A stretch of DNA of 51,183 bases from a virus. Under the pieces are notes generated by a model that was given only the letters and a program-made list of their open reading frames with translations, made no database searches and was not told where the DNA came from. The translations under genes and the position numbers were made by a program. The stretch spans positions 1 to 51,183 of IMG/VR virus record IMGVR_UViG_3300045988_161624; one strand, 5' to 3'. Positions 4,600 through 51,183 of the stretch are shown here, piece by piece; positions within the stretch are counted from its first letter, which is position 1, and every line of letters begins with the position of its first letter.

Positions 4600-5001
4600 A
4601 TGTTTGAAAATAATACTTTGAATCAATATAACCCAAATAATCAAAGTTTTATCGGCTTTGTACAAAACGGAAAAATATTTAATTCTTATGGACAGCAACT
4701 CGGTTATATCACAGATGAATATAATAAAGCTATTGAAACGGCTAAAGGTTTTCAACAAAAATTAATAGAAGCCGGAATACTTGTAAAACCTAAAACACCT
4801 GAAGAAATAAATCAGGAATTGCAAGAAACATTAAAACAGACCCAAACGATGATGACGGAGATGTCCAATACTATTATTTCATTAAACGAAAAAGTCAATA
4901 GATTAGAGGAGAAGAAAGATGTTCAACAAGCAATCAATCCTGTCAGCGGCAGGACGATTCTTACCACAAGAAAAGATTCAACTCCTAAGTCAAGCGTATG
5001 A
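4600..5001 (+). CDS. hypothetical coiled-coil protein
   Basis: AGGGAG SD upstream of the ATG. Heptad-like C-terminal half. No recognisable motif. Confidence 0.5.
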   Translation: MFENNTLNQYNPNNQSFIGFVQNGKIFNSYGQQLGYITDEYNKAIETAKGFQQKLIEAGILVKPKTPEEINQELQETLKQTQTMMTEMSNTIISLNEKVNRLEEKKDVQQAINPVSGRTILTTRKDSTPKSSV

Positions 5002-5266
5002 TTTTGCTAATAAAATAACTGACATTACGCAAAACCCGAAAGAAGCTTTAGAAAAAGCCGGTGTTACTCGAGAAGATTTGGAAAAAGCGAAAAAACTTAT
5101 AAACAATCCTATGGCTGGTTTTTTTCTCGGTGATAAAAAACAATCAGTCATTGACGGATTAAATAGAGCCGAATCGTTATTCGATAAACAAGTTAACTCA
5201 TTATCTGAACAAGCCCCGGTTAATGAGTTAGAGCAATTGCAAGCTAATCTTGCAAGGCTTAAGTAA
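4919..5266 (+). CDS. hypothetical protein
   Basis: ATG preceded by GGAGAAG. Overlaps the previous ORF by 83 nt. Confidence 0.5.
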   Translation: MFNKQSILSAAGRFLPQEKIQLLSQAYDFANKITDITQNPKEALEKAGVTREDLEKAKKLINNPMAGFFLGDKKQSVIDGLNRAESLFDKQVNSLSEQAPVNELEQLQANLARLK

Positions 5267-8767: not shown

Positions 8768-9193
8768 ATGTCAATGCAAATCTGGGTGGACGGAGCTTTT
8801 AACCATAAAACAAAAGAAGCCGGGTTAGGTATTTTAATTCGGGAAATAATACCGAACGGTACAAAAGAAACCAGATTACATGTAAAAACTAAAGCAGAGG
8901 ATAATAATCAGGCGGAATTATTGGCTATTTACAATGCCCTTCAACACATTAAAGGTTCGCCCCGTAGCGAGCCTATTTTTATTATCACAGACAGCCAAAT
9001 TGCTATTGAGAGTATATTGCACCCAGAAACCAAGAAAGACAAATATAGAGAGATTGCAGAACGAATAAGGGGCATGTTGTATTGTGAGAGATGGAAAATA
9101 TATCACAAGAAAGCACATACGGGCAGAAGGGATAGATATTCAATCTATCAAGACCTTGCAGATAAACTTGCAAAAAGCCTTGATTTTAGTTAA
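8768..9193 (+). CDS. rnhA: RNase H (RNase HI-like)
   Basis: IWVDGAF, NNQAELLAIYNAL, FIITDSQ, KKAHTG..D supply the DEDD-type catalytic residues. Confidence 0.85.
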   Translation: MSMQIWVDGAFNHKTKEAGLGILIREIIPNGTKETRLHVKTKAEDNNQAELLAIYNALQHIKGSPRSEPIFIITDSQIAIESILHPETKKDKYREIAERIRGMLYCERWKIYHKKAHTGRRDRYSIYQDLADKLAKSLDFS

Positions 9194-27281: not shown

Positions 27282-27650
27282 TTACAAAGCTAGCACCGGG
27301 CGAACGTACTTATTGTTGTTCTTATAGCCGTAGTTGTACAAACCGTAACTGGTGCCTAGGTTAGAGTACCACGCGTAGTAGTAGGAGTACTCCGACGAAG
27401 ACCAATACCAGTCTCTTTTAAGCGGCTCCCCGCCGGCTCGAACGAGTGCCCGGTTTACATCGTTGAAATTCTCAGCAATCGCTATCCATTCTTCCTTGCT
27501 CGGAATACCTACTTTTACGGCGTCATACCAATTCATAGGCTCCAGCTCATCTTGCAAGGCCAAATAAATAACTCGGCCGTTTATTTGAGCGGCACGGACG
27601 CCGATGGGACGTCCGTCTTTCTTAACAATCATTACTCTGAATTTTGCCAT
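27282..27650 (-). CDS. DUF1566-like (Lcl C-terminal-like) small protein, paralogue A1
   Basis: PMNWYDA..IPSKEEW..GGEPLKRDWYWSSSE..AW....KYVRPVL. Confidence 0.6.
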   Translation of the reverse strand: MAKFRVMIVKKDGRPIGVRAAQINGRVIYLALQDELEPMNWYDAVKVGIPSKEEWIAIAENFNDVNRALVRAGGEPLKRDWYWSSSEYSYYYAWYSNLGTSYGLYNYGYKNNNKYVRPVLAL

Positions 27651-27660
27651 TTGTTTTCTC

Positions 27661-28074
27661 CTAAATTAAAACCGGGCGAACGTAGTTATAGTTGAGCTTA
27701 TAGTACCAGTCCAAACCGTAACTGTAGCCAAGGTCACAGCCCCACGCGTAGTTGTAGGAGTCCTCCGACGAAGACCAATAGTTTTTATTCAGAAGGTCGC
27801 CGCCTACTTTTTCCAGCATTTTGTTGATTCGTTTGATATTTGCGATAACAAACTCCCACTCGTGTTTCATCGGCAAACGGCAATAGTTCTTTTCACACCA
27901 GCATTTTGCGTTGAACCAATCCATGGTTCTAGGCGCGTCGTAAAGTGCAAGGTCGAAATAATGTTTGTCGTCATCAAGCCAACACCTAATCCCGACAATT
28001 TCCTTTTCTCTATCAATATCTTCTGAAGCCGTTCCGTTAGCATATGCGTATTCAATAAAAATTTCTTTCTTCAT
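27661..28074 (-). CDS. DUF1566-like small protein, paralogue B1
   Basis: MDWFNAKCWCEKNYCRLPMKHEW..NYWSSSE..AW..YVRPVL. Confidence 0.6.
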   Translation of the reverse strand: MKKEIFIEYAYANGTASEDIDREKEIVGIRCWLDDDKHYFDLALYDAPRTMDWFNAKCWCEKNYCRLPMKHEWEFVIANIKRINKMLEKVGGDLLNKNYWSSSEDSYNYAWGCDLGYSYGLDWYYKLNYNYVRPVLI

Positions 28075-28113
28075 TTTTGTTCCTTTATTTAAAAATTTGA
28101 TAGCCTTTGCGTT

Positions 28114-28386
28114 CTATTTTATTAAATTTTCCAAAATTATTTTCATTTGCTCCGGGGTACGATTAACCGCTATACAGGGAATTACAAGATTACCGTCAAT
28201 ATCGTAAGTATCTACATGCAGATAAATATCCCCTGTATCAAAAAATTCTAAATCATTTGCGATAATACAATAATTGTCATATATTTCTACACCATCAATT
28301 TCTTTGGCCCATTCAACCAACTCAAACCATGTGATAGTAGGCATAAAAGCCAAATTATCCTCATAATCCGGCGTGTTGTTACTCAT
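28114..28386 (-). CDS. highly acidic 90-aa protein
   Basis: About 20 Asp/Glu against 4 Lys/Arg, by eye. Confidence 0.55.
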   Translation of the reverse strand: MSNNTPDYEDNLAFMPTITWFELVEWAKEIDGVEIYDNYCIIANDLEFFDTGDIYLHVDTYDIDGNLVIPCIAVNRTPEQMKIILENLIK

Positions 28387-28864
28387 CTTTCAATCCTTTC
28401 AATTTATCAGACCAGTGTTTTATTAGTTTTAAGTCCTCTTTGCGCTGCGGGCTGCTGTAATACATATCATTCCCGCACTCGTGTATATACTCCTGACTTT
28501 TGGCCCATTGCAAGCCGCTCAGCACTGTTTCCAAACTTTCGACTATCGCGCCGCCGGCAGTTTTATAATGCGGTTTCCCTTTAAGAATATTTGTAATTAT
28601 AACAGGACTCACGCCTAAAAATTTTGCGACATCGGAAGCGGTTTTAAAAACCTCTGTTTTACCGTTCTGCAAGTGTAATAGTACCCCGTTTGTCTGTGTA
28701 ATAGTACTTGCGTCAACAAGTAAAGGTAGTAAACCAGCTTTAAAAGTTTCATGCGTTGTAAGTGTGATAGTATCGCCGAGAACAAGCTTAAGATGTCTTA
28801 AATTTTTAATTACCATTCGAGTTTTATACCCATTTTTATGCGTAATAGTACAGCTGTAAAACAT
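28379..28864 (-). CDS. protein with NUMOD1-like HTH
   Basis: VFKTASDVAKFLGVSPVIITNILKGK. Confidence 0.45.
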   Translation of the reverse strand: MFYSCTITHKNGYKTRMVIKNLRHLKLVLGDTITLTTHETFKAGLLPLLVDASTITQTNGVLLHLQNGKTEVFKTASDVAKFLGVSPVIITNILKGKPHYKTAGGAIVESLETVLSGLQWAKSQEYIHECGNDMYYSSPQRKEDLKLIKHWSDKLKGLKDE

Positions 28865-28879
28865 TTTTACATATCCTTT

Positions 28880-29455
28880 TTATTTGTGAAGTTTAACCGT
28901 AAAGCCGAAACTTTCAGCTTTTAATAAGTTTTTTGTTGTAAATAAAACATTGCCGAAATCGTCTAAAACATCCCATTCAGTTGTTTTAATGTTCTCCGGT
29001 TTTAAATTTAAAGGCTGTAATAATGCCGCCTTTTTTTTATCACGACTTTCTAATAAAATAGCGTTGTCAGTTCTTGACGGAATTAAAAGCCGTGAATCAT
29101 TCCCGATAAAATTTAAAGCAATTTTAAAATAACTTTCCTTAATTAAAAAATTGTCAATCTGTGCAAGGCCGGCTGTATATTTTATTCTATCAAGCTGCCA
29201 AAGTCGCTGGGCGTTTTTTTTTGCTGAATCATATACAATTTTCCAATCGGCGAGAGGTTTTAAGTCGGTCGGAGCAGGTACGGGCATTTGAAGACGCCAG
29301 CAAAGCGAAAGTTGACCGCCGCCGCTGTCATCAATAAGCATAATCATCCCGTCAGACGCTATATATTTCCCGTCTGTATCTTGATAAATATATTGTAGCG
29401 ACAACCTATCCATTAAACGACTTGTCACTTTGTCAAGCTCGCACGAGTAAAACAT
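28880..29455 (-). CDS. hypothetical protein (191 aa from the ATG at 29455)
   Basis: The track start at 29512 is a TTG. MFYSC N-terminus as in the 28379..28864 product. Confidence 0.55.
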   Translation of the reverse strand: MFYSCELDKVTSRLMDRLSLQYIYQDTDGKYIASDGMIMLIDDSGGGQLSLCWRLQMPVPAPTDLKPLADWKIVYDSAKKNAQRLWQLDRIKYTAGLAQIDNFLIKESYFKIALNFIGNDSRLLIPSRTDNAILLESRDKKKAALLQPLNLKPENIKTTEWDVLDDFGNVLFTTKNLLKAESFGFTVKLHK

Positions 29456-29457
29456 TT

Positions 29458-29622
29458 TTAATAATCCTTTAAAATTGTTAAACATTCCGTCTTTGACAAA
29501 TCTTTTAAACAAATAAAATATTCTGTTTCAGCGTCATAATAAGCATTTTGCCGACGAAAGCCGCTATTTGCAGCGACAAGAATCGCTGCAAATATTAAAA
29601 CCGTTGTAAAATATTTAAACAT
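29458..29622 (-). CDS. 54-aa ORF with signal-peptide-like N-terminus, not in the track
   Basis: Hand translation MFKYFTTVLIFAAILVAANSGFRRQNAYYDAETEYFICLKDLSKTECLTILKDY. AAGGAAA SD. Confidence 0.45.
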   Translation of the reverse strand: MFKYFTTVLIFAAILVAANSGFRRQNAYYDAETEYFICLKDLSKTECLTILKDY

Positions 29623-29653
29623 TTTGGTTATTTCCTTACGTAACCGTTAAGAA

Positions 29654-30067
29654 TTACAAAGTTAGCACCGGGCGAACGAAGCAATCGTCATACCTACTTG
29701 CAGCGTAGTTTAAACCGTAACTGCCATAAAGGATCGATAACCACGCGCTGCCGCTGCTGTATTCCGATGAAGACCAGTAACGGACGCCATCTTTAAACGG
29801 CTCGCCGGCGGCGTCGTTCATCATTTTGTTAATCAATATCAAATTCTCACCGATAAGATTTAGTTCGTGTTTCATCGGCAAACGGCAATAGTTTTCTTCA
29901 CACCAACCCTTGCTTTCGTAATAGTTCATTGTTTCAGGCGCATCTTTCGGACTGATGATAAAATTATGTTTATCGTCAACGTAACAGCGAATGCCGAAAA
30001 ATTCCTTATTTTTGTCAAGCGTTTCGGTTGATGTTCCGTCTGTGTATACAAATTCTAATTTATTCAT
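29654..30067 (-). CDS. DUF1566-like small protein, paralogue B2
   Basis: MNYYESKGWCEENYCRLPMKHEL..RYWSSSE..AW..FVRPVL. 20-nt identity with B1 around catcggcaaacggcaatagtt. Confidence 0.6.
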   Translation of the reverse strand: MNKLEFVYTDGTSTETLDKNKEFFGIRCYVDDKHNFIISPKDAPETMNYYESKGWCEENYCRLPMKHELNLIGENLILINKMMNDAAGEPFKDGVRYWSSSEYSSGSAWLSILYGSYGLNYAASRYDDCFVRPVLTL

Positions 30068-30647: not shown

Positions 30648-30706
30648 TTCGAATCCTTTTCTTGTGTTTATACTTAATATATAACATAAATTATTAAAAT
30701 TGCCAA
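30648..30706 (-). promoter_or_regulatory. early promoter plus leader, copy 2
   Basis: - strand TTGGCA (30706-30701), N17, TATATA (30683-30678). About 50 nt nearly identical to 32393-32440. Confidence 0.65.
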
Positions 30707-32392: not shown

Positions 32393-32451
32393 TTCGAATC
32401 CTTTCTTTATGTTTATACTTAATATATAACATAAATTATAAATGTTGTCAA
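32393..32451 (-). promoter_or_regulatory. early promoter plus leader, copy 1
   Basis: - strand TTGACA (32451-32446), N17, TATATA (32428-32423). The leader is shared with 30648-30697. Confidence 0.7.
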
Positions 32452-36341: not shown

Positions 36342-37820
36342 ATGGTTAAAAAATCAGAGATGTTAAAACGGTCGCCGGATATTGAAACAATGGTGCCTTA
36401 CTGGGACAAGGTAACGGACATTCTTAACGGACAGGAAGCTGTCAAATGCGCTGGGACGGCATATATGCCTATGTTTCCCGATGAGAGTACGAAAGATTAT
36501 GACTTCCGCTTACAAATCAGCAAATTTACTAATATTTATCGGGATGTGGTCGAAGGACTGGCCAGCAAACCTTTTCAGAATGAGATAACCCTTCTGGGCG
36601 GTGAGGGCATCCCGCAAGAATTGCTTGACTTTGCTGAGAATGTTGATGGAGCTGGGAACAATTTGACGAGTTTTGCGGCGTTAACATTTTTTAACGGTAT
36701 TAATTACGCTCTCGACTGGATTTTTGTTGATTATCCGTCAGTTCCTAATCCTGAAGTCATTACGGTTGCTGAGGCTAAAAACATGAATCTTCGACCGTTT
36801 TGGGTGCATATTCTGGCTAAGAATGTACTTGAAATCAGAACGGAGATGAAAGGGTCTGAGCAGATTATAACATATTTCAGACACATGGAACCCGGCTTTG
36901 GCGACGAACCCATGCACGTCAGAGAATTTGTTAAAAATGAAAACGGTCAAATTGATTGGCGGCTTTATGTTGAAGTGCTGAACGATAAGGGTGAGAAAGA
37001 GTTTATTGTAGAGCAAGAAGGGGTGTTAAGTATTGATTTTATCCCGATGGTACCGTTTGTAACTGGTCGTCGGGACGGTAAAAGCTTTAAGTTTTATCCG
37101 CCAATGTCTGATGCCGCAGATTTGCAGATAACTCTTTATCAGAATGAATCGGCACTTGAATATATTAAAATGCTTACGAGTTATCCGATGCTTGCAACAG
37201 ATGGAACAAGAGTGCCGATGGAAGCTGACGGTAAAACCCCTAAAAAAGTGGCGGTAGGCCCTAATCGCGTGCTTTACGGTGTGCCACAGGACAACGGTAT
37301 CGGTGGGAGTTGGAAGTATGTAGAGCCGCAAGCAAACAGCTTGGAGTTTTTGCAGAAAAACATCGACAAGACTAAAAATGACTTGCGTGAGCTGGGTCGT
37401 CAACCGCTAACAGCGCTTTCAACACAGTTAACGACAGTAACGACTTCCATTGCAGCCGGTAAAGCTAAATCTGCGGTTACAGCATGGTGCTTTAATCTCA
37501 AAGACGCTTTAGAAAACGCCTTGCTGGTAACAATGAAATGGATGAACTCGGATTATGAACCGGAGGTTAATGTTTACACCGGGTTTGACAATGTTCTCGA
37601 TGACGGGCAGGACCTTGAAGAGTTAGGGAAAGCTCGTGAGCGGAGAGATATTTCGGTTGAAACTTATTGGGAAGAGCTTAAACGGCGTAAAGTGCTGTCC
37701 CCTGAGTTCAGTGTTGAGCTTGAAAAAAAGAGATTGCTTGAGGATATACCGGTAGATGAGCCGGATCTTAATTCTGGAAATGAAGCAGACAATAATCTTA
37801 ACCAAATTGAGGAAATATAA
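36342..37820 (+). CDS. portal protein (DUF4055-like)
   Basis: 492 aa directly after TerL. N-terminus VPYWDKVTDILNGQEAVKCAGTAYMP. Confidence 0.8.
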   Translation: MVKKSEMLKRSPDIETMVPYWDKVTDILNGQEAVKCAGTAYMPMFPDESTKDYDFRLQISKFTNIYRDVVEGLASKPFQNEITLLGGEGIPQELLDFAENVDGAGNNLTSFAALTFFNGINYALDWIFVDYPSVPNPEVITVAEAKNMNLRPFWVHILAKNVLEIRTEMKGSEQIITYFRHMEPGFGDEPMHVREFVKNENGQIDWRLYVEVLNDKGEKEFIVEQEGVLSIDFIPMVPFVTGRRDGKSFKFYPPMSDAADLQITLYQNESALEYIKMLTSYPMLATDGTRVPMEADGKTPKKVAVGPNRVLYGVPQDNGIGGSWKYVEPQANSLEFLQKNIDKTKNDLRELGRQPLTALSTQLTTVTTSIAAGKAKSAVTAWCFNLKDALENALLVTMKWMNSDYEPEVNVYTGFDNVLDDGQDLEELGKARERRDISVETYWEELKRRKVLSPEFSVELEKKRLLEDIPVDEPDLNSGNEADNNLNQIEEI

Positions 37821-38575
37821 TGACAAGAGGATGGAAATTTGACGAAGCCGGTAATGTTGTTATGAGAGACGGCAATCCGGTTTATATCAATACAAATGGT
37901 GATGAACAGACTATTTCTGTAGACACTATCGCCAATCTCAACAGAGAGGCAAGGGACAATCGAATTGCGAAAGAAGAAGCTTTGGATAAACTTAAAGCCT
38001 TTGAGGGTATCGATGCCGCAAAAGCTCGTGAAGCTTTGGAGGCTATCAGCAAAATCGACAGCAATAAACTTATCGAGGCAGGTAAAGTGGACGAGGTTAA
38101 AGCTCAAATTACCTCACAGTTTCAAACACAGTTGGATGAGAAAAACAAAGCTTTGACAGAATTGCAAGGCAAATATGAGGATATGATTATTAATAACGTA
38201 TTTGCCAACAGTGATTTCATTCGCAACAACGTTGCCGTTCCGAGAGATATGTTTGAAGCTAAATTCCGTAAGAACTTTAAGGTTGAAGACGGTAAAGTGG
38301 TTGTTTACGATAATAACGGTAATCGGCTTTACAGTAAAGACAAGCCGGAGTATGCAACCCCGGAAGAAGGATTGCGTATTTTGGCAGAGAGCCATCCGCA
38401 GCGTGACAGCATTCTGCGTGCTAATGCTGGTAATGGTACGGGAAGCTCTGGAGCCGGTGGTGGCACGGGCGGCTCTCGGTATATGAAACGTGCTGATTTT
38501 GAAAAACTTTCGCCTCAGCAGCAGTTGGAATATGCCAAGAAAATGTCGAACGGTGAAATTACCTTGACAGATTAG
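37820..38575 (+). CDS. scaffolding protein
   Basis: Coiled-coil-rich 251 aa lying between the portal and coat genes. Confidence 0.65.
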   Translation: MTRGWKFDEAGNVVMRDGNPVYINTNGDEQTISVDTIANLNREARDNRIAKEEALDKLKAFEGIDAAKAREALEAISKIDSNKLIEAGKVDEVKAQITSQFQTQLDEKNKALTELQGKYEDMIINNVFANSDFIRNNVAVPRDMFEAKFRKNFKVEDGKVVVYDNNGNRLYSKDKPEYATPEEGLRILAESHPQRDSILRANAGNGTGSSGAGGGTGGSRYMKRADFEKLSPQQQLEYAKKMSNGEITLTD

Positions 38576-38711
38576 AAACAAACTGTTAAATTATAATTGC
38601 TTTTTTCTAGAATTGAGAAAGCGCATCGGGTTGGATGACCTACATCAATCAATCGGTGCGCTTTTTTTACGCACCAAATAAAGTTTAACAAAATTTGAAA
38701 GGTGCTGAATT
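38562..38711 (+). promoter_or_regulatory. late promoter-like boxes plus structured leader, copy 1 (before the major capsid gene)
   Basis: CCTTGACA, N22, TATAATTGC. Hairpin AGCGCATCGG/TCGGTGCGCT followed by T7. Alternative GGTGCG/CGCACC stem. GAAAGGTG SD. About 85% identical to 42830-42925. Confidence 0.7.
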
Positions 38712-39857
38712 ATGGCTAATATTTTGACCAACCTCATCCCGGCTCTTTATCAGAATTTGGATGAAGTTTCTCGCGAGCTGACCGGCTTCCTGCCGTCTGT
38801 GGCTCGTAATTCTTCTGCCGCTCGTGCCGCTGTTGGTGAATCGGTAACTGTACCGGTCAGCTCGGCTATGGAGTCCGGCGATGTTACCCCGGCAATGACC
38901 GTTCCGGAGCCGGAAGACTTCACGATGGACAACGTTGCTATTCAGATTACGAAATCCCGTAACGTTTCTTTTGGTCTGACTGGTGAGGAATTTCAGGGTC
39001 TGAATAACGGTGTCGGAGCTAATTATATTCTCGGTGAAAACATCAAACAGGCTATTCGTACTTTGGCTAACGAGATGGAGAAAGACGTTGCTATTGAAGC
39101 TGCCGCCGCCTCCTCTCGCGCTTATGGTACGGCTGGTACTACCCCGTTCGCAACTGATTTGTCGGATGCTGCCCAGATTAAAAAACTCTTGGATGATAAC
39201 GGCGCTCCGATGGGTGGACGTTCTTTGATTATCAACACGACCGCCGGTGTAAATCTGCGTTCTTTGACGCAGTTGACGAACGTCGGTGATGCTGGTACCA
39301 ATATGACCCTGCGTCAGGGTGAGTTGCTGAACCTGTTTGGTTTCTCGATTAAAGAATCCGCTGGCATTCAGAATGTTGCTCAGTCGACGATTTCCGGTGT
39401 TACGTTGAATGCTGCGGAAGCTGGCGCTACCGAGCTGACGATTAAAGCTGCTACCTCTGGCTCTCTGAAAGCTGGTGACATTATTACCATTGCTGGTGAT
39501 GACAACAAATATGTTGTTGCCGAAGCTAACAGCTCTCTGGCTGCCGAAGGTAAGATTAAAATTGCTAAACCGGGTCTGCTTCAGGCTGCTGCTGACAGTG
39601 CTGCGGTTACCGTTGTTGCTGCTTCTGCCCGTAACATTGCGTTTACGCAGAACGCTATTCAGTTGGTTACCCGCGCTCCGGCTCTTCCGGGCGGACGTGA
39701 CGCGGCTGTTGACAGCTACATTATGACCGATTCCCGTTCGGGTATGGCTTTTGAAGTCCGTGTATATCAGGGCTACAGAAAGATGCGTATGGAAGTTGCC
39801 TGCGCATGGGGTGTTAAGGTTATTAAACCTGAGCACGTCGCAACCTTGCTTGGTTAA
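38712..39857 (+). CDS. major capsid protein (P22 coat-like)
   Basis: 381 aa after the scaffold gene. C-terminus MEVACAWGVKVIKPEHV resembles P22 gp5 CRIALWYGVNATRPEAI. Flanked by terminator hairpins. Confidence 0.75.
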   Translation: MANILTNLIPALYQNLDEVSRELTGFLPSVARNSSAARAAVGESVTVPVSSAMESGDVTPAMTVPEPEDFTMDNVAIQITKSRNVSFGLTGEEFQGLNNGVGANYILGENIKQAIRTLANEMEKDVAIEAAAASSRAYGTAGTTPFATDLSDAAQIKKLLDDNGAPMGGRSLIINTTAGVNLRSLTQLTNVGDAGTNMTLRQGELLNLFGFSIKESAGIQNVAQSTISGVTLNAAEAGATELTIKAATSGSLKAGDIITIAGDDNKYVVAEANSSLAAEGKIKIAKPGLLQAAADSAAVTVVAASARNIAFTQNAIQLVTRAPALPGGRDAAVDSYIMTDSRSGMAFEVRVYQGYRKMRMEVACAWGVKVIKPEHVATLLG

Positions 39858-39865
39858 GGTAAACA

Positions 39866-39898
39866 GGGAGGGTGGTAACCTGCCCTCCCAACTTTTTT
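39866..39898 (+). terminator. rho-independent terminator after the capsid gene
   Basis: GGGAGGG (39866-39872) pairs with CCCTCCC (39883-39889), then AACTTTTTT. Confidence 0.75.
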
Positions 39899-39910
39899 AT
39901 GGAGATGAAA

Positions 39911-42410: not shown

Positions 42411-42808
42411 TAGAATCTAAGATTATCGACCTCTTGCAAAAGCAGGTTACCAAAGCCGTTGATGGTTTATATCCTATTAAATATTTGAATGTTAATATTG
42501 AACCGACTGATTCATTTTGGGAGGTTGTTTATATCCCGAATAATGTTGAAAATGAGTTCTGGGATAAGGGAAAAACTTATCAGGGTATTTTAAGATTGAT
42601 ACTTCATTGGCCGGCCGATAATACAGGTATTTATACACCTCTTCAAGAAGCTGAAAGAGTTTCTGCTGAATTTTCCAAAGGTACCGAATTATTTGGCGAT
42701 GATGTTAAGGTTATTATTACAGATAACCCGAATTTAACAAGTCTTAATGAAGACGACGGAAAATTGCTAATACCCTTGACAATTCGTTATTTGTGCTTTA
42801 AGCTATAA
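42407..42808 (+). CDS. tail terminator / tail completion protein
   Basis: 133 aa immediately upstream of the major tail gene. Confidence 0.5.
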   Translation: MIESKIIDLLQKQVTKAVDGLYPIKYLNVNIEPTDSFWEVVYIPNNVENEFWDKGKTYQGILRLILHWPADNTGIYTPLQEAERVSAEFSKGTELFGDDVKVIITDNPNLTSLNEDDGKLLIPLTIRYLCFKL

Positions 42809-42920
42809 TTGCATGGAATAATACCTCCGAGCGCACTAGGTTGGATGACCTAAAAAATCAATCAATCGGTGCGCTTTTTTACGCACCAAACAAAGTTTTA
42901 ATATTTGAAAGGTGCTAAAA
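42774..42920 (+). promoter_or_regulatory. late promoter-like boxes plus structured leader, copy 2 (before the major tail gene)
   Basis: CCTTGACA (42774-42781), N22, TATAATTGC (42804-42812). Same hairpins and SD as copy 1. Confidence 0.7.
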
Positions 42921-43673
42921 ATGGCGAATACAAACGCATTTTCGAAAATTTATGTTTGCCCCGACCCGCAGAACGATGACTTGACTGCTGACGATTATGC
43001 AGGGTTGAGCTGGGTTCTTATCAAAGGTGTGGGTAATCTCGGTGAAACTGGTAAGTCTACTAACATTTTGACGTATAACACATGGGAAACCGCAGTGGCG
43101 GATAAGGCTAAAGGTATTACTGATGCCGGTTCCCCGACACTTGAAGTTGCTCGTGACCCGAACGATGAAGGTCAGAAAATTCTCAACAGCGCCGCGGCTG
43201 TTGGTAACAACAACGACTATGCTTTCAAAATCGAACGTGCTGATGCTCCTCTCGGTGGAACGGGTACTATCATGTACAACCGCGGTCTGGTTGGTGGCCC
43301 GACCCGTCCGAACGGACAGAATGAAGACTTTGATTTGGAAGTCTTTACGCTTGGTCTGGTGCAGGAAGAAATTGTTGTCCCGCCGACGACCGGAACGGGC
43401 GCTCCTGTGATGACAGCAGCCCCGGCTATCACTGGAACGGCGCAGGTTGGAGAAACCTTGACCTGTTCGACCGGTACATTTACAGGTACTTCTTTGACCT
43501 ACAGCTATCAGTGGTTTGCTAACGGTCTTGTAGTGTCAGGAGCGGTTGAAAGCACTTATGATTTGGTTGAAGCGGATTTGGGTAAGGTATTTTCCTGCCG
43601 TGTAACTGCTAGAAACGACGGTGGTTCTGCTACCGGATTTTCTAACACTACAACTGGTGTAATTGCTGAATAA
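42921..43673 (+). CDS. major tail protein with C-terminal Ig-like domain
   Basis: ATG at 42921 (MANTNAF). C-terminus ITGTAQVGETLTCSTGTFTGTSLTYSYQWFANG..VTARNDGG is an Ig-like repeat. Confidence 0.75.
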   Translation: MANTNAFSKIYVCPDPQNDDLTADDYAGLSWVLIKGVGNLGETGKSTNILTYNTWETAVADKAKGITDAGSPTLEVARDPNDEGQKILNSAAAVGNNNDYAFKIERADAPLGGTGTIMYNRGLVGGPTRPNGQNEDFDLEVFTLGLVQEEIVVPPTTGTGAPVMTAAPAITGTAQVGETLTCSTGTFTGTSLTYSYQWFANGLVVSGAVESTYDLVEADLGKVFSCRVTARNDGGSATGFSNTTTGVIAE

Positions 43674-47062: not shown

Positions 47063-47556
47063 TTAGTGATAATTTACGACAAGTTTCATACGCTCAGGAA
47101 ACAGACGTTGCCGTCATCATTTTATTGACATTGCGAACAAATGATTTGCCTGACGCTATAAGAATTTGCAGTACACCAGTTGAAAAATTTGCTGATTTGG
47201 GCGAAAATGTTTATGGTTGTACAAGTAACGGGCAAAGGTATCTTTTCTTGCCTTTTAACATTGTCTTGCCGCAAGACGATAAAACCGGGGCTGTAACAGC
47301 AAAATTAACGATTGATAACGTCAATAGACAAATTGTACAATATGCCAGAGAAACCAAATCAGCCATTAATGTTGATATTCAGGTAATTTTGTCTAATGAT
47401 TTGAACGCTGTAGAATTAGAGTTTAAGGACTTTAAGCTTACTAATGTCAGTTATGATGCTTTTACGGTTTCCGGGGATTTGTCTGTTGATTACCTTGGTC
47501 TTGAACCATTTCCTTGCGGTCGTTTTACACCGTCTGGTTTTCCGGGATTGTTCTAA
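47059..47556 (+). CDS. minor tail protein (DUF1833 / gpL-position)
   Basis: GTGA overlap start. LLTLRTNDL..IRI.. YLFLPFNIVLPQDD..AKLTIDNVNRQIV. Confidence 0.55.
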   Translation: MISDNLRQVSYAQETDVAVIILLTLRTNDLPDAIRICSTPVEKFADLGENVYGCTSNGQRYLFLPFNIVLPQDDKTGAVTAKLTIDNVNRQIVQYARETKSAINVDIQVILSNDLNAVELEFKDFKLTNVSYDAFTVSGDLSVDYLGLEPFPCGRFTPSGFPGLF

Positions 47557-47951: not shown

Positions 47952-50900
47952 AGACATAATTGTTCAAAAATCTGTTTTGCCGTTTAGGCAAGATTTTGAA
48001 ACCCTGCATCTCGAAAATTGCAAAACACCCAGGGAAATTGTCAATAAACTTGTACCTTTTAATTTTGTTGATTGTAGACTTGTTGTAACGCTCGACGGTG
48101 AAATATTACCGGAAGAAAAATGGGGTCAACAACTTAAAAAAGGTCAGCTTGTAGGGCTTAATTATATCCCCACAGGAGGGGGTGACGGTGGTAAGAATGT
48201 TCTCACGGCTGTTGCGGTAATAGTTGCCGCTATAGCTATACCTGCTCTTGCAGGGAGTTTAGCTTTGATGGCCGGTAATGCTGCTGTAGCAGCAGGGGCA
48301 GGGGCGTTTGGTGCTGGTATAGGTGGTTTTACAGGATTGGCCGCGGCCGCTTATGCAGCAACATATGGAGTAGTAATGATCGGTGGGTCGATGTTGCTCT
48401 CTATGGCGACAAGTTCGCTTATGTCAACACCAAGTCAATCTTTTGGTACATCAAGTTATAAAGAATCTCAAACTCAATTTGTTGAGGGTGCTTCGAACGC
48501 TGTTAATAAATTCGGGGTTATACCGGTTAATTTGGGAACAAACAGAATGTTCCCTCCGCAAGCCGCACTTCCTTATACAGAGAGCAGTAGTAACGATCAA
48601 TATTGCCGTCAGTTATTTACTTATGGATACGGAAAAGTAAGTGTTGTTGAACGTAAATTAGGTGAAACAGCTTTAGACGAATATGATTATGTGGAAATTG
48701 AAGACAAGCTTGATGCAGATTTAAATTCCGGCACAAAATTGTATGCTAATGACGTGTATCAGGAAGACTTTAGCATTAAAGTTACAAAAGCTGAATCCCC
48801 TTTCACTCGCGTAACGCAGAAAGATTGTGACGAATGTATTTTGGATTTTACGTTTCAGGGATTAGTACAAGTTATTACTGCCGGTAAATATGCAGGATTA
48901 AAATTAAAAACTACCGTTCAATTTGAGGTTCAATACGCTCCGGTTAATACAGAAGATTGGAGTACGTCAATCAACGGTGCTACAATCAAAGAACAGTCGA
49001 TAACTGCTAATATAAGTGTTTATTTGTTATACAGATTTTTAAATACTTGGGTTTGCCGTCGTTATTTTCTTGCTTTAAATACACAAACCGGTGATATAAG
49101 TATTCATTCTGTTGATTCTAAAGTTAACAGACTTGAATATCCGTCTTTGTCTTCTGAATATGTTTATCTTGGTTATTATGAAAATGGTTCTTTTCATGAT
49201 TTAAGACAAAACCTTGTAGGCTCTTCGATTAAAAGTATCGATGATTTTGTTGTTACGACCGACGCTGCTGATAAATCAAACGCTTTGATAACTGTTGGAA
49301 GTGGTAGTATTCTTGGTACGACTTCAACAATGACAGTAACTGACGCAACTTCAAGAGTTTTAAGAGTTTCTCGGCGAATTGTTTTCCCGGTTAGAGGTCA
49401 ATATCAAATAAAAGTTACTCGTTTAACGAATGATTCGAATGATGAAGCTTTGTCGAATGATTCGTATTGGACAGCGTTAAAATCTATAACTTATCGGAAC
49501 CCGGTTAATTTTCCGGATATTTCCGGTACAGCTATAAGAATTAAAGCTACAGACCAGTTGAACGGTACTATATCGTCTTACAACGCCATTGTTTCAACTC
49601 TTATCAAATCTTATAATCCTGAAACAAATCTTTGGGAAAATGATGTTGCCAGCTCTAATCCGGCAGACATTTTCAGATATGTTTTACAGTCTCCGGCTTT
49701 TGCAAAGCATGAACAAATTACTGATGATAAAATTGATTTGGAAAAGCTGAAAGAGTGGTGGATTTATTGTAATTCATTGAATCTTACGTTTAATAAAGTT
49801 GTAGATTCAGATACAAGTATTGACGATGTTTTAAATGATATTTGTGCTGCGGGTGTTGCAACATTATCAAAAGTTAATAATATTTTTAGTGTTGTTATCG
49901 ATAATGAACGCCCTTATGTTAAAGGGTTGGTAACACCTCGTAACAGTTGGGATTATAAAGGAAATATCAGTTATCCAGAACTTCCTGATGCTTTGCGTGT
50001 TGAATTTCGCAACGCTGAAGCAGGTTACGAAACTGACGAACGCATTGTTTACAGAGACGGATTTGACGAAAGCAATGCTAAATTATTTGAACGTTTGGAA
50101 TTTGCGAGTTGTACAAATGCTGATTTAGCTTATTGGTATGGTAGACGTTATTTTGCTACGGCTTTGTTGCAACCGGAAACCCATTCATTCAAAATGGATT
50201 TCGAACATCTTACTTTTAACCGCGGCGACCGTATCAACCTTGTTAACGATGTTATTCTTGTCGGTGTCGGGCAGGGGCGTATTAAAGAGTTGCTTATAGA
50301 CGATACAGGTAATGTTACAGGTTTTGTTATTGACGATGAGGTAAATATTCCGACAACGAAGAATTTTGCAGTTCGTATTCGTGATAATAATGCCAAAGGT
50401 TTTAATTATTATTTGCTGGAGCAATTTGTCGGAACCAGTGATACATTTAATTTCGCACAACCTTTAACGGCTGAAAATGCCCCCTCCATCGGTAGTCTTT
50501 GTGCATTTGTTGAAGACGGCAAAGAGCTTGATTTAATCATAACACAGATAAAAACCGCCAGTAATGAAACGGCCACAATTACCGCTGTAGACTATTCCCC
50601 GGCACGTTTTGACCCGATTGAAGAGTTTCCTGAATGGACAAGCAACATTACAATTCCCGGAGATTTTTACAAACCTTATGCTCCTGAATTAAATGGAGAA
50701 ATTCAATCAGACGAATCTGTCATGATTAGAAATTCCGATGGTTCTTTAACTTCGGTTATGATTATACCTCTTAAAAATATTAATGAAAGTTCAGTAATTC
50801 CGGTAATACAGATGAGAATTACAGGTGCTACTGAATGGTTTGTACCAAATACTTTGAAAAATGATTCGAACGAACTAGTTTTAACAGGTCTTAGTGACGG

Positions 50901-51183
50901 GTCGTATTATGATATAAGCATTCGTTATCAACGTCAAACAGGTTTGCAACTGCTTTCGGATGCTTTGTTTATGAACAATGTTAAATTTATCGGCGGTTCA
51001 ACACCTCCTAAAGATGTTAAAAACTTTAGGGTTACTGTTACAAACGGATTGGCTCTTTTTGAATGGACCCCAAATGATGACATCGATATATCTCATTATG
51101 TAATCAAGTATTCTTTAGATACAAAAGATGTTAGTTGGGAAAGTGCACAAACAGCCGTAGCAAGAGTTACCAGTAATACCGTT
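47941..51183 (+). CDS. gpI-like domain fused to gpJ-like central tail fibre / host specificity protein (continues at 1..916, about 1367 aa in total)
   Basis: Hand translation shows no stop across 47941-48720 or 50101-50290. No stop-bounded + strand ORF of 60 aa or more is listed in this frame up to the window end. The N-terminus has a Gly/Ala-rich hydrophobic segment and NKFGVIPVNLGTNRMF (gpI-like). Later, FASCTNADLAYWYGRRYFATALLQPETHSF is gpJ/Phage-tail_3-like. Confidence 0.8.
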   Translation, partial: MLNEDIIVQKSVLPFRQDFETLHLENCKTPREIVNKLVPFNFVDCRLVVTLDGEILPEEKWGQQLKKGQLVGLNYIPTGGGDGGKNVLTAVAVIVAAIAIPALAGSLALMAGNAAVAAGAGAFGAGIGGFTGLAAAAYAATYGVVMIGGSMLLSMATSSLMSTPSQSFGTSSYKESQTQFVEGASNAVNKFGVIPVNLGTNRMFPPQAALPYTESSSNDQYCRQLFTYGYGKVSVVERKLGETALDEYDYVEIEDKLDADLNSGTKLYANDVYQEDFSIKVTKAESPFTRVTQKDCDECILDFTFQGLVQVITAGKYAGLKLKTTVQFEVQYAPVNTEDWSTSINGATIKEQSITANISVYLLYRFLNTWVCRRYFLALNTQTGDISIHSVDSKVNRLEYPSLSSEYVYLGYYENGSFHDLRQNLVGSSIKSIDDFVVTTDAADKSNALITVGSGSILGTTSTMTVTDATSRVLRVSRRIVFPVRGQYQIKVTRLTNDSNDEALSNDSYWTALKSITYRNPVNFPDISGTAIRIKATDQLNGTISSYNAIVSTLIKSYNPETNLWENDVASSNPADIFRYVLQSPAFAKHEQITDDKIDLEKLKEWWIYCNSLNLTFNKVVDSDTSIDDVLNDICAAGVATLSKVNNIFSVVIDNERPYVKGLVTPRNSWDYKGNISYPELPDALRVEFRNAEAGYETDERIVYRDGFDESNAKLFERLEFASCTNADLAYWYGRRYFATALLQPETHSFKMDFEHLTFNRGDRINLVNDVILVGVGQGRIKELLIDDTGNVTGFVIDDEVNIPTTKNFAVRIRDNNAKGFNYYLLEQFVGTSDTFNFAQPLTAENAPSIGSLCAFVEDGKELDLIITQIKTASNETATITAVDYSPARFDPIEEFPEWTSNITIPGDFYKPYAPELNGEIQSDESVMIRNSDGSLTSVMIIPLKNINESSVIPVIQMRITGATEWFVPNTLKNDSNELVLTGLSDGSYYDISIRYQRQTGLQLLSDALFMNNVKFIGGSTPPKDVKNFRVTVTNGLALFEWTPNDDIDISHYVIKYSLDTKDVSWESAQTAVARVTSNTV
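51129..51183. repeat. 55-bp terminal overlap, identical to 1..55
   Basis: Direct comparison. Confidence 0.95.

Follow-up and report, generated by a model that had tools for sequence, protein, structure and literature searches.

A GGAU-hairpin RNA motif in leaders of phage scaffold, capsid and tail-tube genes, with a predicted promoter and termination/translation switch in one clade

In the 51,183-nucleotide (nt) sequence IMGVR_UViG_3300045988_161624, analysed here over its full length and referred to as the window, the major capsid gene and the major tail (tail-tube) gene of a phage are each preceded by a copy of the same leader cassette (copy 1, the capsid leader; copy 2, the tail leader). 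As judged from sequence comparison, these cassettes belong to a family of cis-regulatory RNAs, widespread and so far uncatalogued, that stands before the genes of the three most abundant virion proteins, i.e., scaffold, capsid and tail tube, and in the clade of the window the family motif is fused to a putative promoter and a predicted terminator/anti-Shine-Dalgarno switch. Unequal amounts of scaffold, coat and tail-tube proteins in tailed phages are mostly explained by translation efficiency, and the leader described here probably tunes the amount of the most abundant virion proteins. We hold the family, the specificity and the anatomy of the motif with high confidence, and the finding is more interesting than first described in an initial annotation of this DNA, in which a duplicated, structured leader was claimed for the two genes.

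The paired look-alike stretches before the capsid and tail-tube genes are real. Pairwise alignment of copy 1 with copy 2 from the -35 element to past the ATG gave 82% mean column identity over 197 columns, and the copies were 82% identical from the 5' arm of the terminator to the ATG and 71% identical from the -35 element to the ATG. The duplication was thus borne out, and the initial figure of about 85% identity, slightly high but fair, compares with the 82% measured from hairpin to ATG. Two words described as identical, a 14-mer (GGTTGGATGACCTA) at 38629 and 42839 and a 24-mer (ATCAATCAATCGGTGCGCTTTTTT) at 38644 and 42857, had no other exact match in the window, and none of 100 dinucleotide-preserving shuffles contained a match to the 24-mer. 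Both genes begin ATG GCx AAT and are preceded by GAAAGGTGCT, in agreement with the claim of a common Shine-Dalgarno (SD) sequence and a Met-Ala-Asn start, and upstream of the stretch first described the likeness of the copies runs on to CCTTGACA and TATAATTGC. The identities proposed for the downstream genes agree with PHROGs (Table 1), by which the surroundings are an ordinary siphovirus morphogenesis module composed of small and large terminase, portal, scaffold, capsid, adaptors, tail terminator, tail tube, chaperones and tape measure.

The wider family was evident from the scaffold-capsid intergenic regions of 150 capsid loci, in which a pair of small hairpins with GGAU loops, covarying stems and a GGCGC-like linker recurred; approximately 100 such pairs were listed by a simple scan, all on the gene strand. 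Among gene-strand hairpins of at least 5 base pairs (bp) in 170 capsid loci, GGAU was the commonest of the 256 tetraloops, with 233 occurrences on the gene strand as opposed to 56 on the opposite strand and a median over the 256 loops of 55. The consensus of 46 diverse copies consists of UGCC, an internal loop, P1 (stem-GGAU-stem), GGC, GC(U/A)nn and P2 (stem-GGAU-stem), with the tetraloops of P1 and P2 closed by a Y-G pair. In this alignment, changes on both sides were found in 10 of 10 P1/P2 pairs, and the covariation score was 0.76 compared with 0.27 for shuffles and at most 0.20 with partners slid. The inner four P1/P2 pairs had been the selection criterion for sequences, so that the variety of pair types there is informative while the percentage paired is not. 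P0, the lower stem, played no part in the selection; the three pairs of its GCC/GGC core were approximately 89% paired (80% for all four pairs), with some compensatory change. Thus, the GGAU loops are near-invariant while the stems covary, strongly so in the homologous phages in which covariance had initially been proposed as a check. The accompanying argument, that a conserved loop implies a specific partner, stood as far as the loops are concerned, the partner itself being a supposition.

A covariance model of P0, P1, the GCGC linker and P2 (designated R1), built from a seed of mostly distant relatives in which only 2 of 46 sequences were close to the window, gave significant matches on the two strands of the 51-kb window at 38597-38644 and 42809-42854 only. 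Capsid loci yielded 105 matches, none on the minus strand and many outside the seed, including those of Escherichia coli phage HK639 and of Erwinia, Leclercia and Franconibacter prophages, and 10 further matches came from five loci gathered independently via scaffold homologues. All 117 matches, both window copies included, were on the gene strand and 44-280 nt upstream of a start codon, which was that of scaffold in 52 cases, capsid in 57 and major tail in 8. No matches were found in 718 kb of unrelated bacterial control DNA. A loose genome-wide pattern, GGATGACCT...TCGGTGCGC, was abandoned after it gave chance matches only, in GC-rich genomes, and the loci concerned were reused as a negative control. 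In a search of Rfam 15, which covers TwoAYGGAY (RF01731), CsrB/RsmZ-type RNAs and phage cis-elements, with cmscan at the gathering threshold, no match was returned for the whole window or for 12 motif-bearing loci, and at E <= 10 the leader itself gave only chance-level matches below 17 bits. The Rfam/Infernal comparison suggested at the outset was thus run and left Rfam 15 without a matching family; the motif is new in the sense that it is in neither Rfam 15 nor the literature searched.

Known carriers include E. coli phage HK639, 12 E. coli prophages and Rhizobium phage P106B; in RefSeq E. coli genomes with an HK639-type leader, only a DUF6651 protein is annotated at that place. Close relatives of the window phage in IMG/VR and metagenomes carry the cassette at both positions, as does a relative with 65% capsid identity (L006; L-numbers are labels of related phage and prophage loci), in which the terminator stem is lengthened, while relatives at approximately 50% identity at first seemed to have no cassette. 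In HK639 (L348; regions 4901-5003 and 9019-9065), terminators are annotated directly before the scaffold and major tail genes. The R1 match at 4927-4973, within the scaffold leader (NC_016158 4927-5003), begins just past the first of these, and between the motif and the SD there is a third hairpin, of which the loop is GGAA; the phage offers a tractable model. Capsid and tail leaders inside one genome were also noted to carry common lineage-specific features, in the window as well as in L006, L277 and L355. Thus, a GGUGAAG...CUUCAC stem extension is present in both copies of L006 (5776-5876 and 9997-10098), GGAUAACC in both copies of L355 (7300 and 11599), and 28 bases are identical between the copies of L277 (2849 and 7524); the two copies of L006 are 75% identical to each other and 58-63% identical to the orthologous window copies. 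As a pattern in the sequences, this likeness suggests that the copies undergo gene conversion or co-evolve with a common partner.

In both window copies the motif is preceded by a putative sigma-70-type promoter (TTGACA, 17 nt, TAnnnT), which had been missed in the initial annotation and which would place the structure at the 5' end of its own transcript. In copy 1 the overlapping TATAAT is followed by TTGC and then by approximately 20 variable bases before the terminator hairpin. TTGAC lay 22-36 nt upstream of the motif in 21 of 97 family copies compared with 1.7% of random positions, and the fuller pattern of TTGAC, 16-18 nt and TAnnnT preceded 13 of 97 copies compared with 0.09% of random positions, an enrichment of approximately 150-fold. 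Before capsid and tail copies of low- and mid-GC phages, the pattern TTGAC(A), 17 nt, TAnnnT is kept even in diverged relatives, and the motif starts 4-10 nt past the -10 hexamer, which argues that it forms the 5' end of its own transcript. A T-tract directly before the motif was found in 35 of 97 copies as opposed to 2%, among scaffold copies and copies of GC-rich prophages, and in enterobacterial examples this tract is the tail of a terminator hairpin. In the window, a further strong intrinsic terminator begins 9 nt past the stop codon of the capsid gene; together with the upstream promoter, it would delimit a capsid-only transcription unit with its own promoter, leader and terminator.

Between the motif and the start codon, each window leader contains a predicted intrinsic terminator, a hexamer designated X (CGCACC) and an SD region (Table 1). 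The basal stem, AGCGCAYCG/CGGUGCGCU, followed by U7 in copy 1 or U6 in copy 2, answers to a GC-rich hairpin with a U-tract; the terminator was not listed by a simple scan for loops of 3-8 nt because the hairpin, at approximately 47 nt, is longer than typical. Its 5' arm overlaps the P0 3' strand, the linker and P2. For X, the duplex with the terminator 3' arm was calculated at -11.9 kcal/mol and that with the SD at -9.8 kcal/mol, and in the minimum-free-energy fold of the capsid leader X pairs with the SD sequence GGUGC. The terminator-like hairpin with U6-7 that had first been proposed was thus upheld by folds of -21.0 and -20.4 kcal/mol (z -4.7 and -4.3 against shuffles), and the alternative GGUGCG/CGCACC pairing was present in both copies, both structures being kept in relatives with 55-65% capsid identity. 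Less of the proposed conserved loop survived: its sequence is conserved beyond pairing, but what was described as a loop forms a small hairpin of its own, (U)AGGUU-GGAU-GACCU(A), i.e., P2 of the wider P0-P1-linker-P2 motif. Overall, the initial interpretation stood with regard to the conserved leader, the terminator and the alternative pairing and fell short in missing the promoter, the P2 hairpin and the masking of the SD, and it is because CGCACC also masks the SD that a four-segment switch is proposed here.

Two other readings of the window leaders were set aside. The P2 sequence GGUUGGAUGACCU (38629-38641 and 42839-42851) is one position off the 3' end of 16S rRNA, GGUUGGAUCACCU; mimicry of that end is probably a chance likeness, as nothing but Y-GGAU-G is kept in the family consensus and the stems covary. 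A tRNA-like structure was rejected, there being no T-loop and no tRNA found in the window by ARAGORN.

Comparison of leaders across the family indicated different arrangements downstream of the common motif. Terminator-type leaders were noted in the window clade and in L277, L274, L279, L280, L353-L355, L357 and L358. In these, the terminator 5' arm is made up of the P0 3' strand, the linker and P2 (or P1), and X, past the U-tract, can pair with the SD as well as with the terminator 3' arm. Among 17 clade leaders, 87% of terminator stem cells were paired. The X:SD helix was 94% paired, with one compensatory change, and the RNAalifold consensus selected P2 and GGUGCG:CGCACC. In L354, X and the SD have changed together, from GCACC:GGUGC to GUACC:GGUAC, with the GCGCGU part that matches the terminator arm retained, and in L006, L353, L355 and L358 the terminator stems are lengthened by compensatory pairs. 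Leaders that have no terminator show other devices. Thus, in the L277 tail leader (CUUCUCAUC against GAUGAGAAG) and in L280 (GAUCAUCC against GGAUGAUC), the bases from the SD to the AUG are the perfect complement of the P1 loop and 3' arm, the SD of L205 and L221 is buried in a long helix, and scaffold leaders have an additional GGAU hairpin that adjoins or includes the SD. The predicted terminator with its U-tract is a clade-specific output module, and other members are predicted to bury the ribosome-binding region instead. Across 20 capsid leaders, the motif fold was on average 6.2 kcal/mol above the minimum-free-energy fold; when the motif fold was enforced, the accessibility of the SD was lowered in none and raised in 5 of the 20. 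The motif would thus be a sensor with interchangeable expression platforms, its own fold being the ON state in capsid and tail leaders.

In the mechanism proposed for the window cassettes, the sigma-70-type promoter (TTGACA, 17 nt, TAAATT or TAAGCT) would start a transcript of which the first ~45 nt are the RNA motif. Segment 1 would comprise the P0 3' strand, the linker and the 5' half of P2, segment 2 AUCGGUGCGCU followed by U6-7, segment 3 CGCACC and segment 4 the SD sequence GGUGC. In the OFF state, pairing of segments 1 and 2 would form the intrinsic terminator, and in any read-through RNA segment 3 would mask the SD. In the ON state, the motif fold would hold segment 1 so that segments 2 and 3 pair, the terminator is lost and the SD is free. 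Since the motif fold is usually less stable than the alternative, a trans-acting factor that recognises the two GGAU loops would be needed to stabilise it. That each copy is a self-contained late-gene control cassette, a factor-dependent attenuator combined with a translation switch and possibly driven by free scaffold, is the reading we somewhat favour; for the switch logic as such we see the balance as even. That the promoter is active, that transcripts terminate, which way the switch works and which factor drives it are inferences from the sequence.

A candidate for this factor emerged from the scaffold gene. The first ~55 residues of the scaffolding protein are strikingly conserved (MTRGWKFDEAGNVVMRDGNPVYINTNGDEQTISVDTIANLNREARDNR in the window; consensus MKLKLDDQGHVVVQDGKPVY...TISRLNGEAKTHRE), and this N-terminal domain was detected by tblastn at 68 of 74 motif-positive loci as opposed to 2 of 75 motif-negative loci (Fisher p 1.5e-32). 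In the six apparent misses the domain is present behind a hydrophobic N-terminal extension, and in the two apparent false positives the motif is a variant, with GGAA loops in the one and a wider spacing in the other. With all 8 exceptions resolved, co-occurrence of motif and domain is essentially perfect. Scaffolds of motif-negative phages (e.g., L007, L309, L316 and L160) are homologous from approximately residue 56 on and have a different N-terminus. Since the state of the motif changes at least 14 times on the capsid tree, the association is not that of a single clade. Within 6 kb on each side, no gene family beyond scaffold was specific to motif-bearing loci, and only scaffold, capsid and portal were common to all of them. 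The AlphaFold2 model predicts beta strands in residues 4-31 and a long helix in residues 36-60 (predicted local distance difference test score ~80). A relationship of the domain to CsrA was rejected at a profile-profile probability of 0.4%. The most likely factor, put forward tentatively, is therefore the phage's own scaffolding protein acting through this domain, which may, with the same reserve, be a new RNA-binding module that reads GGAU hairpins in scaffold, coat and tail-tube leaders. Unassembled scaffold would then repress its own translation, as the hairpin lies over the SD, and would keep the motif fold in place in the coat and tail leaders, thereby removing the terminator or unmasking the ribosome-binding site (RBS) and turning these genes on; synthesis of scaffold, coat and tail tube would thereby be coupled to the pool of unassembled scaffold. 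Close homologues of the window scaffold (P0054, P0058 and P0080) are hypothetical proteins from metagenome-assembled genomes labelled 'Alphaproteobacteria bacterium' and, in one case, 'Methanobrevibacter sp.', the latter probably a binning artefact; they give a weak hint that the host of the window phage is an uncultured, low-GC alphaproteobacterium of gut or rumen.

Several observations weigh against a scaffold-driven switch of this kind. Changes in the terminator (17-sequence alignment) and in the X:SD helix are mostly of wobble type with few double changes, which is attributable to the shallowness of the clade. P2 is intact in both window copies, but P1 is degenerate in copy 1 (GAAU loop) and absent from copy 2; in the close relatives L001, L002 and L003, P1 is intact in the capsid copy. 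When P0 and P2 were enforced in silico in the window leaders, a shortened terminator stem remained, and the enforced stems alone did not yield the hairpin of segments 2 and 3, i.e., the proposed ON state. The switch is accordingly inferred and not demonstrated, and as P2 is at the tip of the terminator, a protein bound there need not prevent termination. Searches with the N-terminal domain, by sequence against the PDB and by Foldseek with two AlphaFold2 models, gave no significant match to any solved fold and no likeness in sequence or fold to known RNA-binding proteins. Physical linkage could also explain part of the co-occurrence if the scaffold leader, scaffold gene and capsid leader move as a module; the tail copies, 4-5 kb away, argue for a relationship in trans.

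Four other explanations were compared with the scaffold-driven cassette, of which two, each judged unlikely, concern a host factor or no factor at all. Host CsrA/Rsm-family dimers might bridge the two GGA loops and control termination or translation, so that virion output is tied to host physiology. GGAUG in short hairpin loops with two sites ~23 nt apart is a textbook CsrA target (PMC7366521), the start-to-start distance of 19-28 nt between the GGAU loops is within the ~10-63 nt expected for two-site binding to GGA loops, the two-hairpin Rfam family TwoAYGGAY matched a CsrA-site model (PMC4333381), and some phages carry csrA, with a csrA-like gene immediately upstream of the major head gene in Bcep22. 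On the other hand, many motif-bearing prophages are from Betaproteobacteria (Cupriavidus, Aquitalea, Variovorax, Caldimonas, Paraburkholderia and Duganella) and others from Alphaproteobacteria, whereas in a published survey CsrA was found in only two betaproteobacterial species and some proteobacterial classes were without it (PMC7366521). A phmmer search with three CsrA queries found no homologue among the open reading frames (ORFs) of the window genome and related loci. The A that typically lies two bases before GGA in CsrA sites is not conserved, because that position is in a covarying stem, which counts against CsrA; R1 does not match the csrA-carrying phages Bcep22 and VvAW1; and a host factor would not predict perfect co-occurrence with a phage protein domain. 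According to the factor-independent explanation, to which we give about the same low weight, a strong promoter, a leaky terminator and a partly masked RBS would set a fixed high output, the 5' hairpins would protect the mRNA from 5'-end-dependent decay, and the loops would be kept for folding or tertiary reasons. The promoter-proximal motif and the post-capsid terminator suit a dedicated, stable and abundant mRNA, the leader is AU-rich upstream of the SD, and the proposed partner is only a candidate. Yet near-invariant GGAU loops in stems of which every position varies argue for sequence-specific recognition, folds more stable than the conserved motif fold exist, the lineage-specific 'anti-motif' complements at the terminator or RBS are the signature of a switch and not of a static stabiliser, and a terminator between a promoter and its sole gene would be wasteful if never regulated.

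The remaining two explanations appear less probable still. Processive antitermination in cis like that of lambda nut or HK022 put, with a two-hairpin RNA that alone or with Nus factors modifies RNA polymerase, is improbable. As in put, two hairpins are close to the promoter, and the linker GGCGCU(C/U) loosely resembles the boxA core, CGCUCUUA. In HK639, which is related by its capsid, terminators are annotated ahead of the scaffold and major tail genes, one of them directly followed by the motif, and the universality of RNA polymerase would explain the broad host range. Against this, the motif physically overlaps the terminator that would need to be suppressed, the element stands before individual genes and not once at the start of an operon, and many members have no terminator and mask the RBS, while the scaffold-leader hairpin abuts the SD/AUG, features at the level of translation for which a polymerase modifier has no need. 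The last explanation, that each copy is a gene for a small RNA whose ~65-70 nt product acts in trans as a decoy or antisense RNA, the position before these genes being incidental, we consider very improbable. A promoter and a strong terminator after ~65 nt would give a discrete RNA with a conserved exposed loop, but across the family the terminator is often missing while the motif and its position before the start are kept, X and the SD covary with the unit, and the window contains no convincing target complementary to the loop.

Table 1. Positions of genes and of putative regulatory elements in the window (position 1 is its first nucleotide)
Feature	Position	Strand	Remarks
Scaffolding protein gene (DUF6651)	37820-38575	+	phrog_784/206, PF20356
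Conserved scaffold N-terminal domain, residues 1-57	37820-37990	+	tracks the RNA motif; candidate trans-acting partner
Putative -35 TTGACA, capsid-leader promoter	38564-38569	+	in last codons of scaffold gene; scan score 10/12
Putative -10 TAAATT, capsid leader	38587-38592	+	17-nt spacer; TG at 38584-38585 (TG-extended)
Second -10-like TATAAT, overlapping, capsid leader	38592-38597	+	read from sequence
GGAU-hairpin RNA motif, capsid copy	38597-38644	+	R1 30.7 bits, E 1.9e-5, full length
P0, capsid copy	GCUU 38599-38602 with AAGC 38619-38622	+	lower stem
P1, capsid copy	38606-38618	+	degenerate, UCUA-GAAU-UGAGA
Linker GCGCAUC, then P2 GGGUU-GGAU-GACCU, capsid copy	P2 38628-38641	+	motif fold
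Predicted intrinsic terminator, capsid leader	hairpin 38618-38664, U7 38662-38668	+	imperfect, ~20 bp; -21.0 kcal/mol, z -4.7 against shuffles
Element X CGCACC, capsid leader	38670-38675	+	complementary to terminator 3' arm GGUGCG and SD GGUGC
SD region GAAAGGUGCU, capsid gene	38697-38706	+	AU-rich spacer between X and SD
Major capsid gene, P22-coat-like, the regulated gene in the proposed mechanism	38712-39857	+	phrog_283 major head protein, E 2.7e-93
Predicted strong intrinsic terminator after capsid gene	39866-39899	+	10-bp stem, 7 GC pairs, then AACTTTTTTA
Putative -35 TTGACA, tail-leader promoter	42776-42781	+	inside tail-terminator-protein gene
Putative -10 TAAGCT, tail leader	42799-42804	+	17-nt spacer; TATAAT at 42804-42809
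GGAU-hairpin RNA motif, tail copy	42809-42854	+	R1 27.2 bits, E 1.2e-4
P2 UAGGUU-GGAU-GACCUA, tail copy	42837-42852	+	P1 place holds unrelated sequence
Predicted intrinsic terminator, tail leader	hairpin 42829-42876, U6 42875-42880	+	-20.4 kcal/mol, z -4.3 against shuffles
Element X CGCACC, tail leader	42882-42887	+	read from sequence
SD region GAAAGGUGCU, major tail gene	42907-42916	+	ATG at 42921
Major tail protein gene (tail tube)	42921-43673	+	phrog_158, E 2e-24

An exact 55-nt direct repeat at 1-55 and 51129-51183 indicates that the window is a complete genome of 51,128 bp, either circularly closed or with terminal redundancy. Among its products are a DNA polymerase, a primase, a helicase and an exonuclease, and no RNA polymerase was recognised. 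No match was obtained when the region was compared with cultured phages by megablast, and the best cultured capsid match, 55% identical, was that of Rhizobium phage P106B. Other repeats were noted outside the late leaders. Three paralogous small genes on the minus strand at 27282-30067 contain repeated segments (27336-27407, 27709-27780 and 29708-29779, 68-86% identical; also 27860-27939 with 29865-29944) and look like a small multigene family of the early region. An AT-rich 59-nt repeat beginning TTCGAATCC (30648-30706 and 32393-32451, 88% identical), in which ARAGORN found no tRNA, has one copy in the divergent region between leftward and rightward gene blocks; the two copies may be duplicated early promoter/operator regions. 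A 30-nt element present in four copies (47388-47417, 49422-49478 and 50853-50882) and containing the near-palindrome CGAATGATTCG may be bound by a regulator in the distal tail and lysis region.

The importance of these observations lies in a defined, widespread and strongly covarying RNA element exactly at the scaffold, coat and tail-tube genes, with lineage-specific output modules (terminator or RBS masking) and a concrete candidate for the protein partner. If the scaffold-driven cassette is real, it would amount to an assembly-sensing feedback circuit common to hundreds of phages and prophages across several bacterial phyla, and the presence of members in cultured phages makes the hypothesis directly testable. 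The compact arrangement of promoter, switch and terminator may also serve as a part for synthetic biology.

Comparison with known systems indicates partial likeness to several and identity with none. With CsrA/RsmA targets and sponges (the hcnA and glgC leaders, CsrB/RsmZ, TwoAYGGAY RF01731) the family shares short hairpins with GGA(U) loops, two or three of them 19-28 nt apart, and the overlap of the last scaffold-leader hairpin with the SD would suit a bridging dimer. It differs from them in having no Rfam match, no conserved A two bases upstream of GGA and a fixed P0, linker and P2 architecture, in that the window phage encodes no CsrA and many hosts are from mostly CsrA-less groups, and in an output predicted to be activating in capsid leaders. 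In Burkholderia phage Bcep22 (L351, 6171-6460), a csrA-like gene is separated from the major head gene by a 95-nt leader only; the leader sequence GCGC-AGGAU-GUGC, with the CsrB-type word CAGGAUG, pairs with the SD/AUG in the minimum-free-energy fold. Here, independently, translation of the capsid gene may be controlled by an RNA-binding protein whose gene is part of the head module. Bcep22 thus resembles the present loci in having such a gene directly before capsid and a GGA-hairpin leader that can pair with the SD/AUG, whereas its capsid family is DUF4043, its leader is different and not matched by R1, and its CsrA is recognisable where none is found here. By analogy only, it shows that head modules do recruit RNA-binding regulators.

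Like the RNA targets of BglG/SacY-type antitermination and trp-type attenuators, the window leaders have a conserved RNA structure that overlaps the terminator 5' arm and mutually exclusive segment pairings that would choose between termination and read-through. They differ from both in the sensor motif, in the absence of a leader peptide, in that segments 3 and 4 would control the RBS rather than form the terminator, and in that the same sensor is predicted to drive purely translational outputs in other lineages. Lambdoid late control (PR'-qut-tR' with Q) and the put elements of HK022 and HK639 likewise place a terminator a short way after a promoter, with structured nascent RNA in the vicinity of the promoter, in phage operons that have terminators inside them. 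Unlike nut or put, the element here is repeated before single genes and includes control of the RBS, and its GGAU tetraloops are unlike the GNRA-like pentaloop of boxB, the hairpin that goes with boxA and the N protein in lambda; its loop sequence and architecture are presumably unrelated to those of boxB or put. PHROG scans of the ORFs examined turned up no gene resembling N or Q.

The autoregulated scaffold of P22 provides a further comparison, for which the precedent is reportedly the work of Wyckoff and Casjens in 1985 (cited in PMC2115188). To our knowledge, no RNA target has been defined since the 1980s for autoregulation of the P22 scaffold. The portal and scaffold genes of P22 are a mere 13 nt apart, with no such leader before gene 8; the scaffold family described here is DUF6651, and the capsid and tail-tube genes would also be controlled. 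The order of portal, scaffold and P22-type coat in the head module is the same, and the N-terminus of the P22 scaffold has been implicated in post-transcriptional (translational) autoregulation (bioRxiv 10.1101/2022.12.13.520362). Thus, in both systems the N-terminus of the scaffold is the regulatory candidate, and in the family described here this domain tracks the RNA motif.

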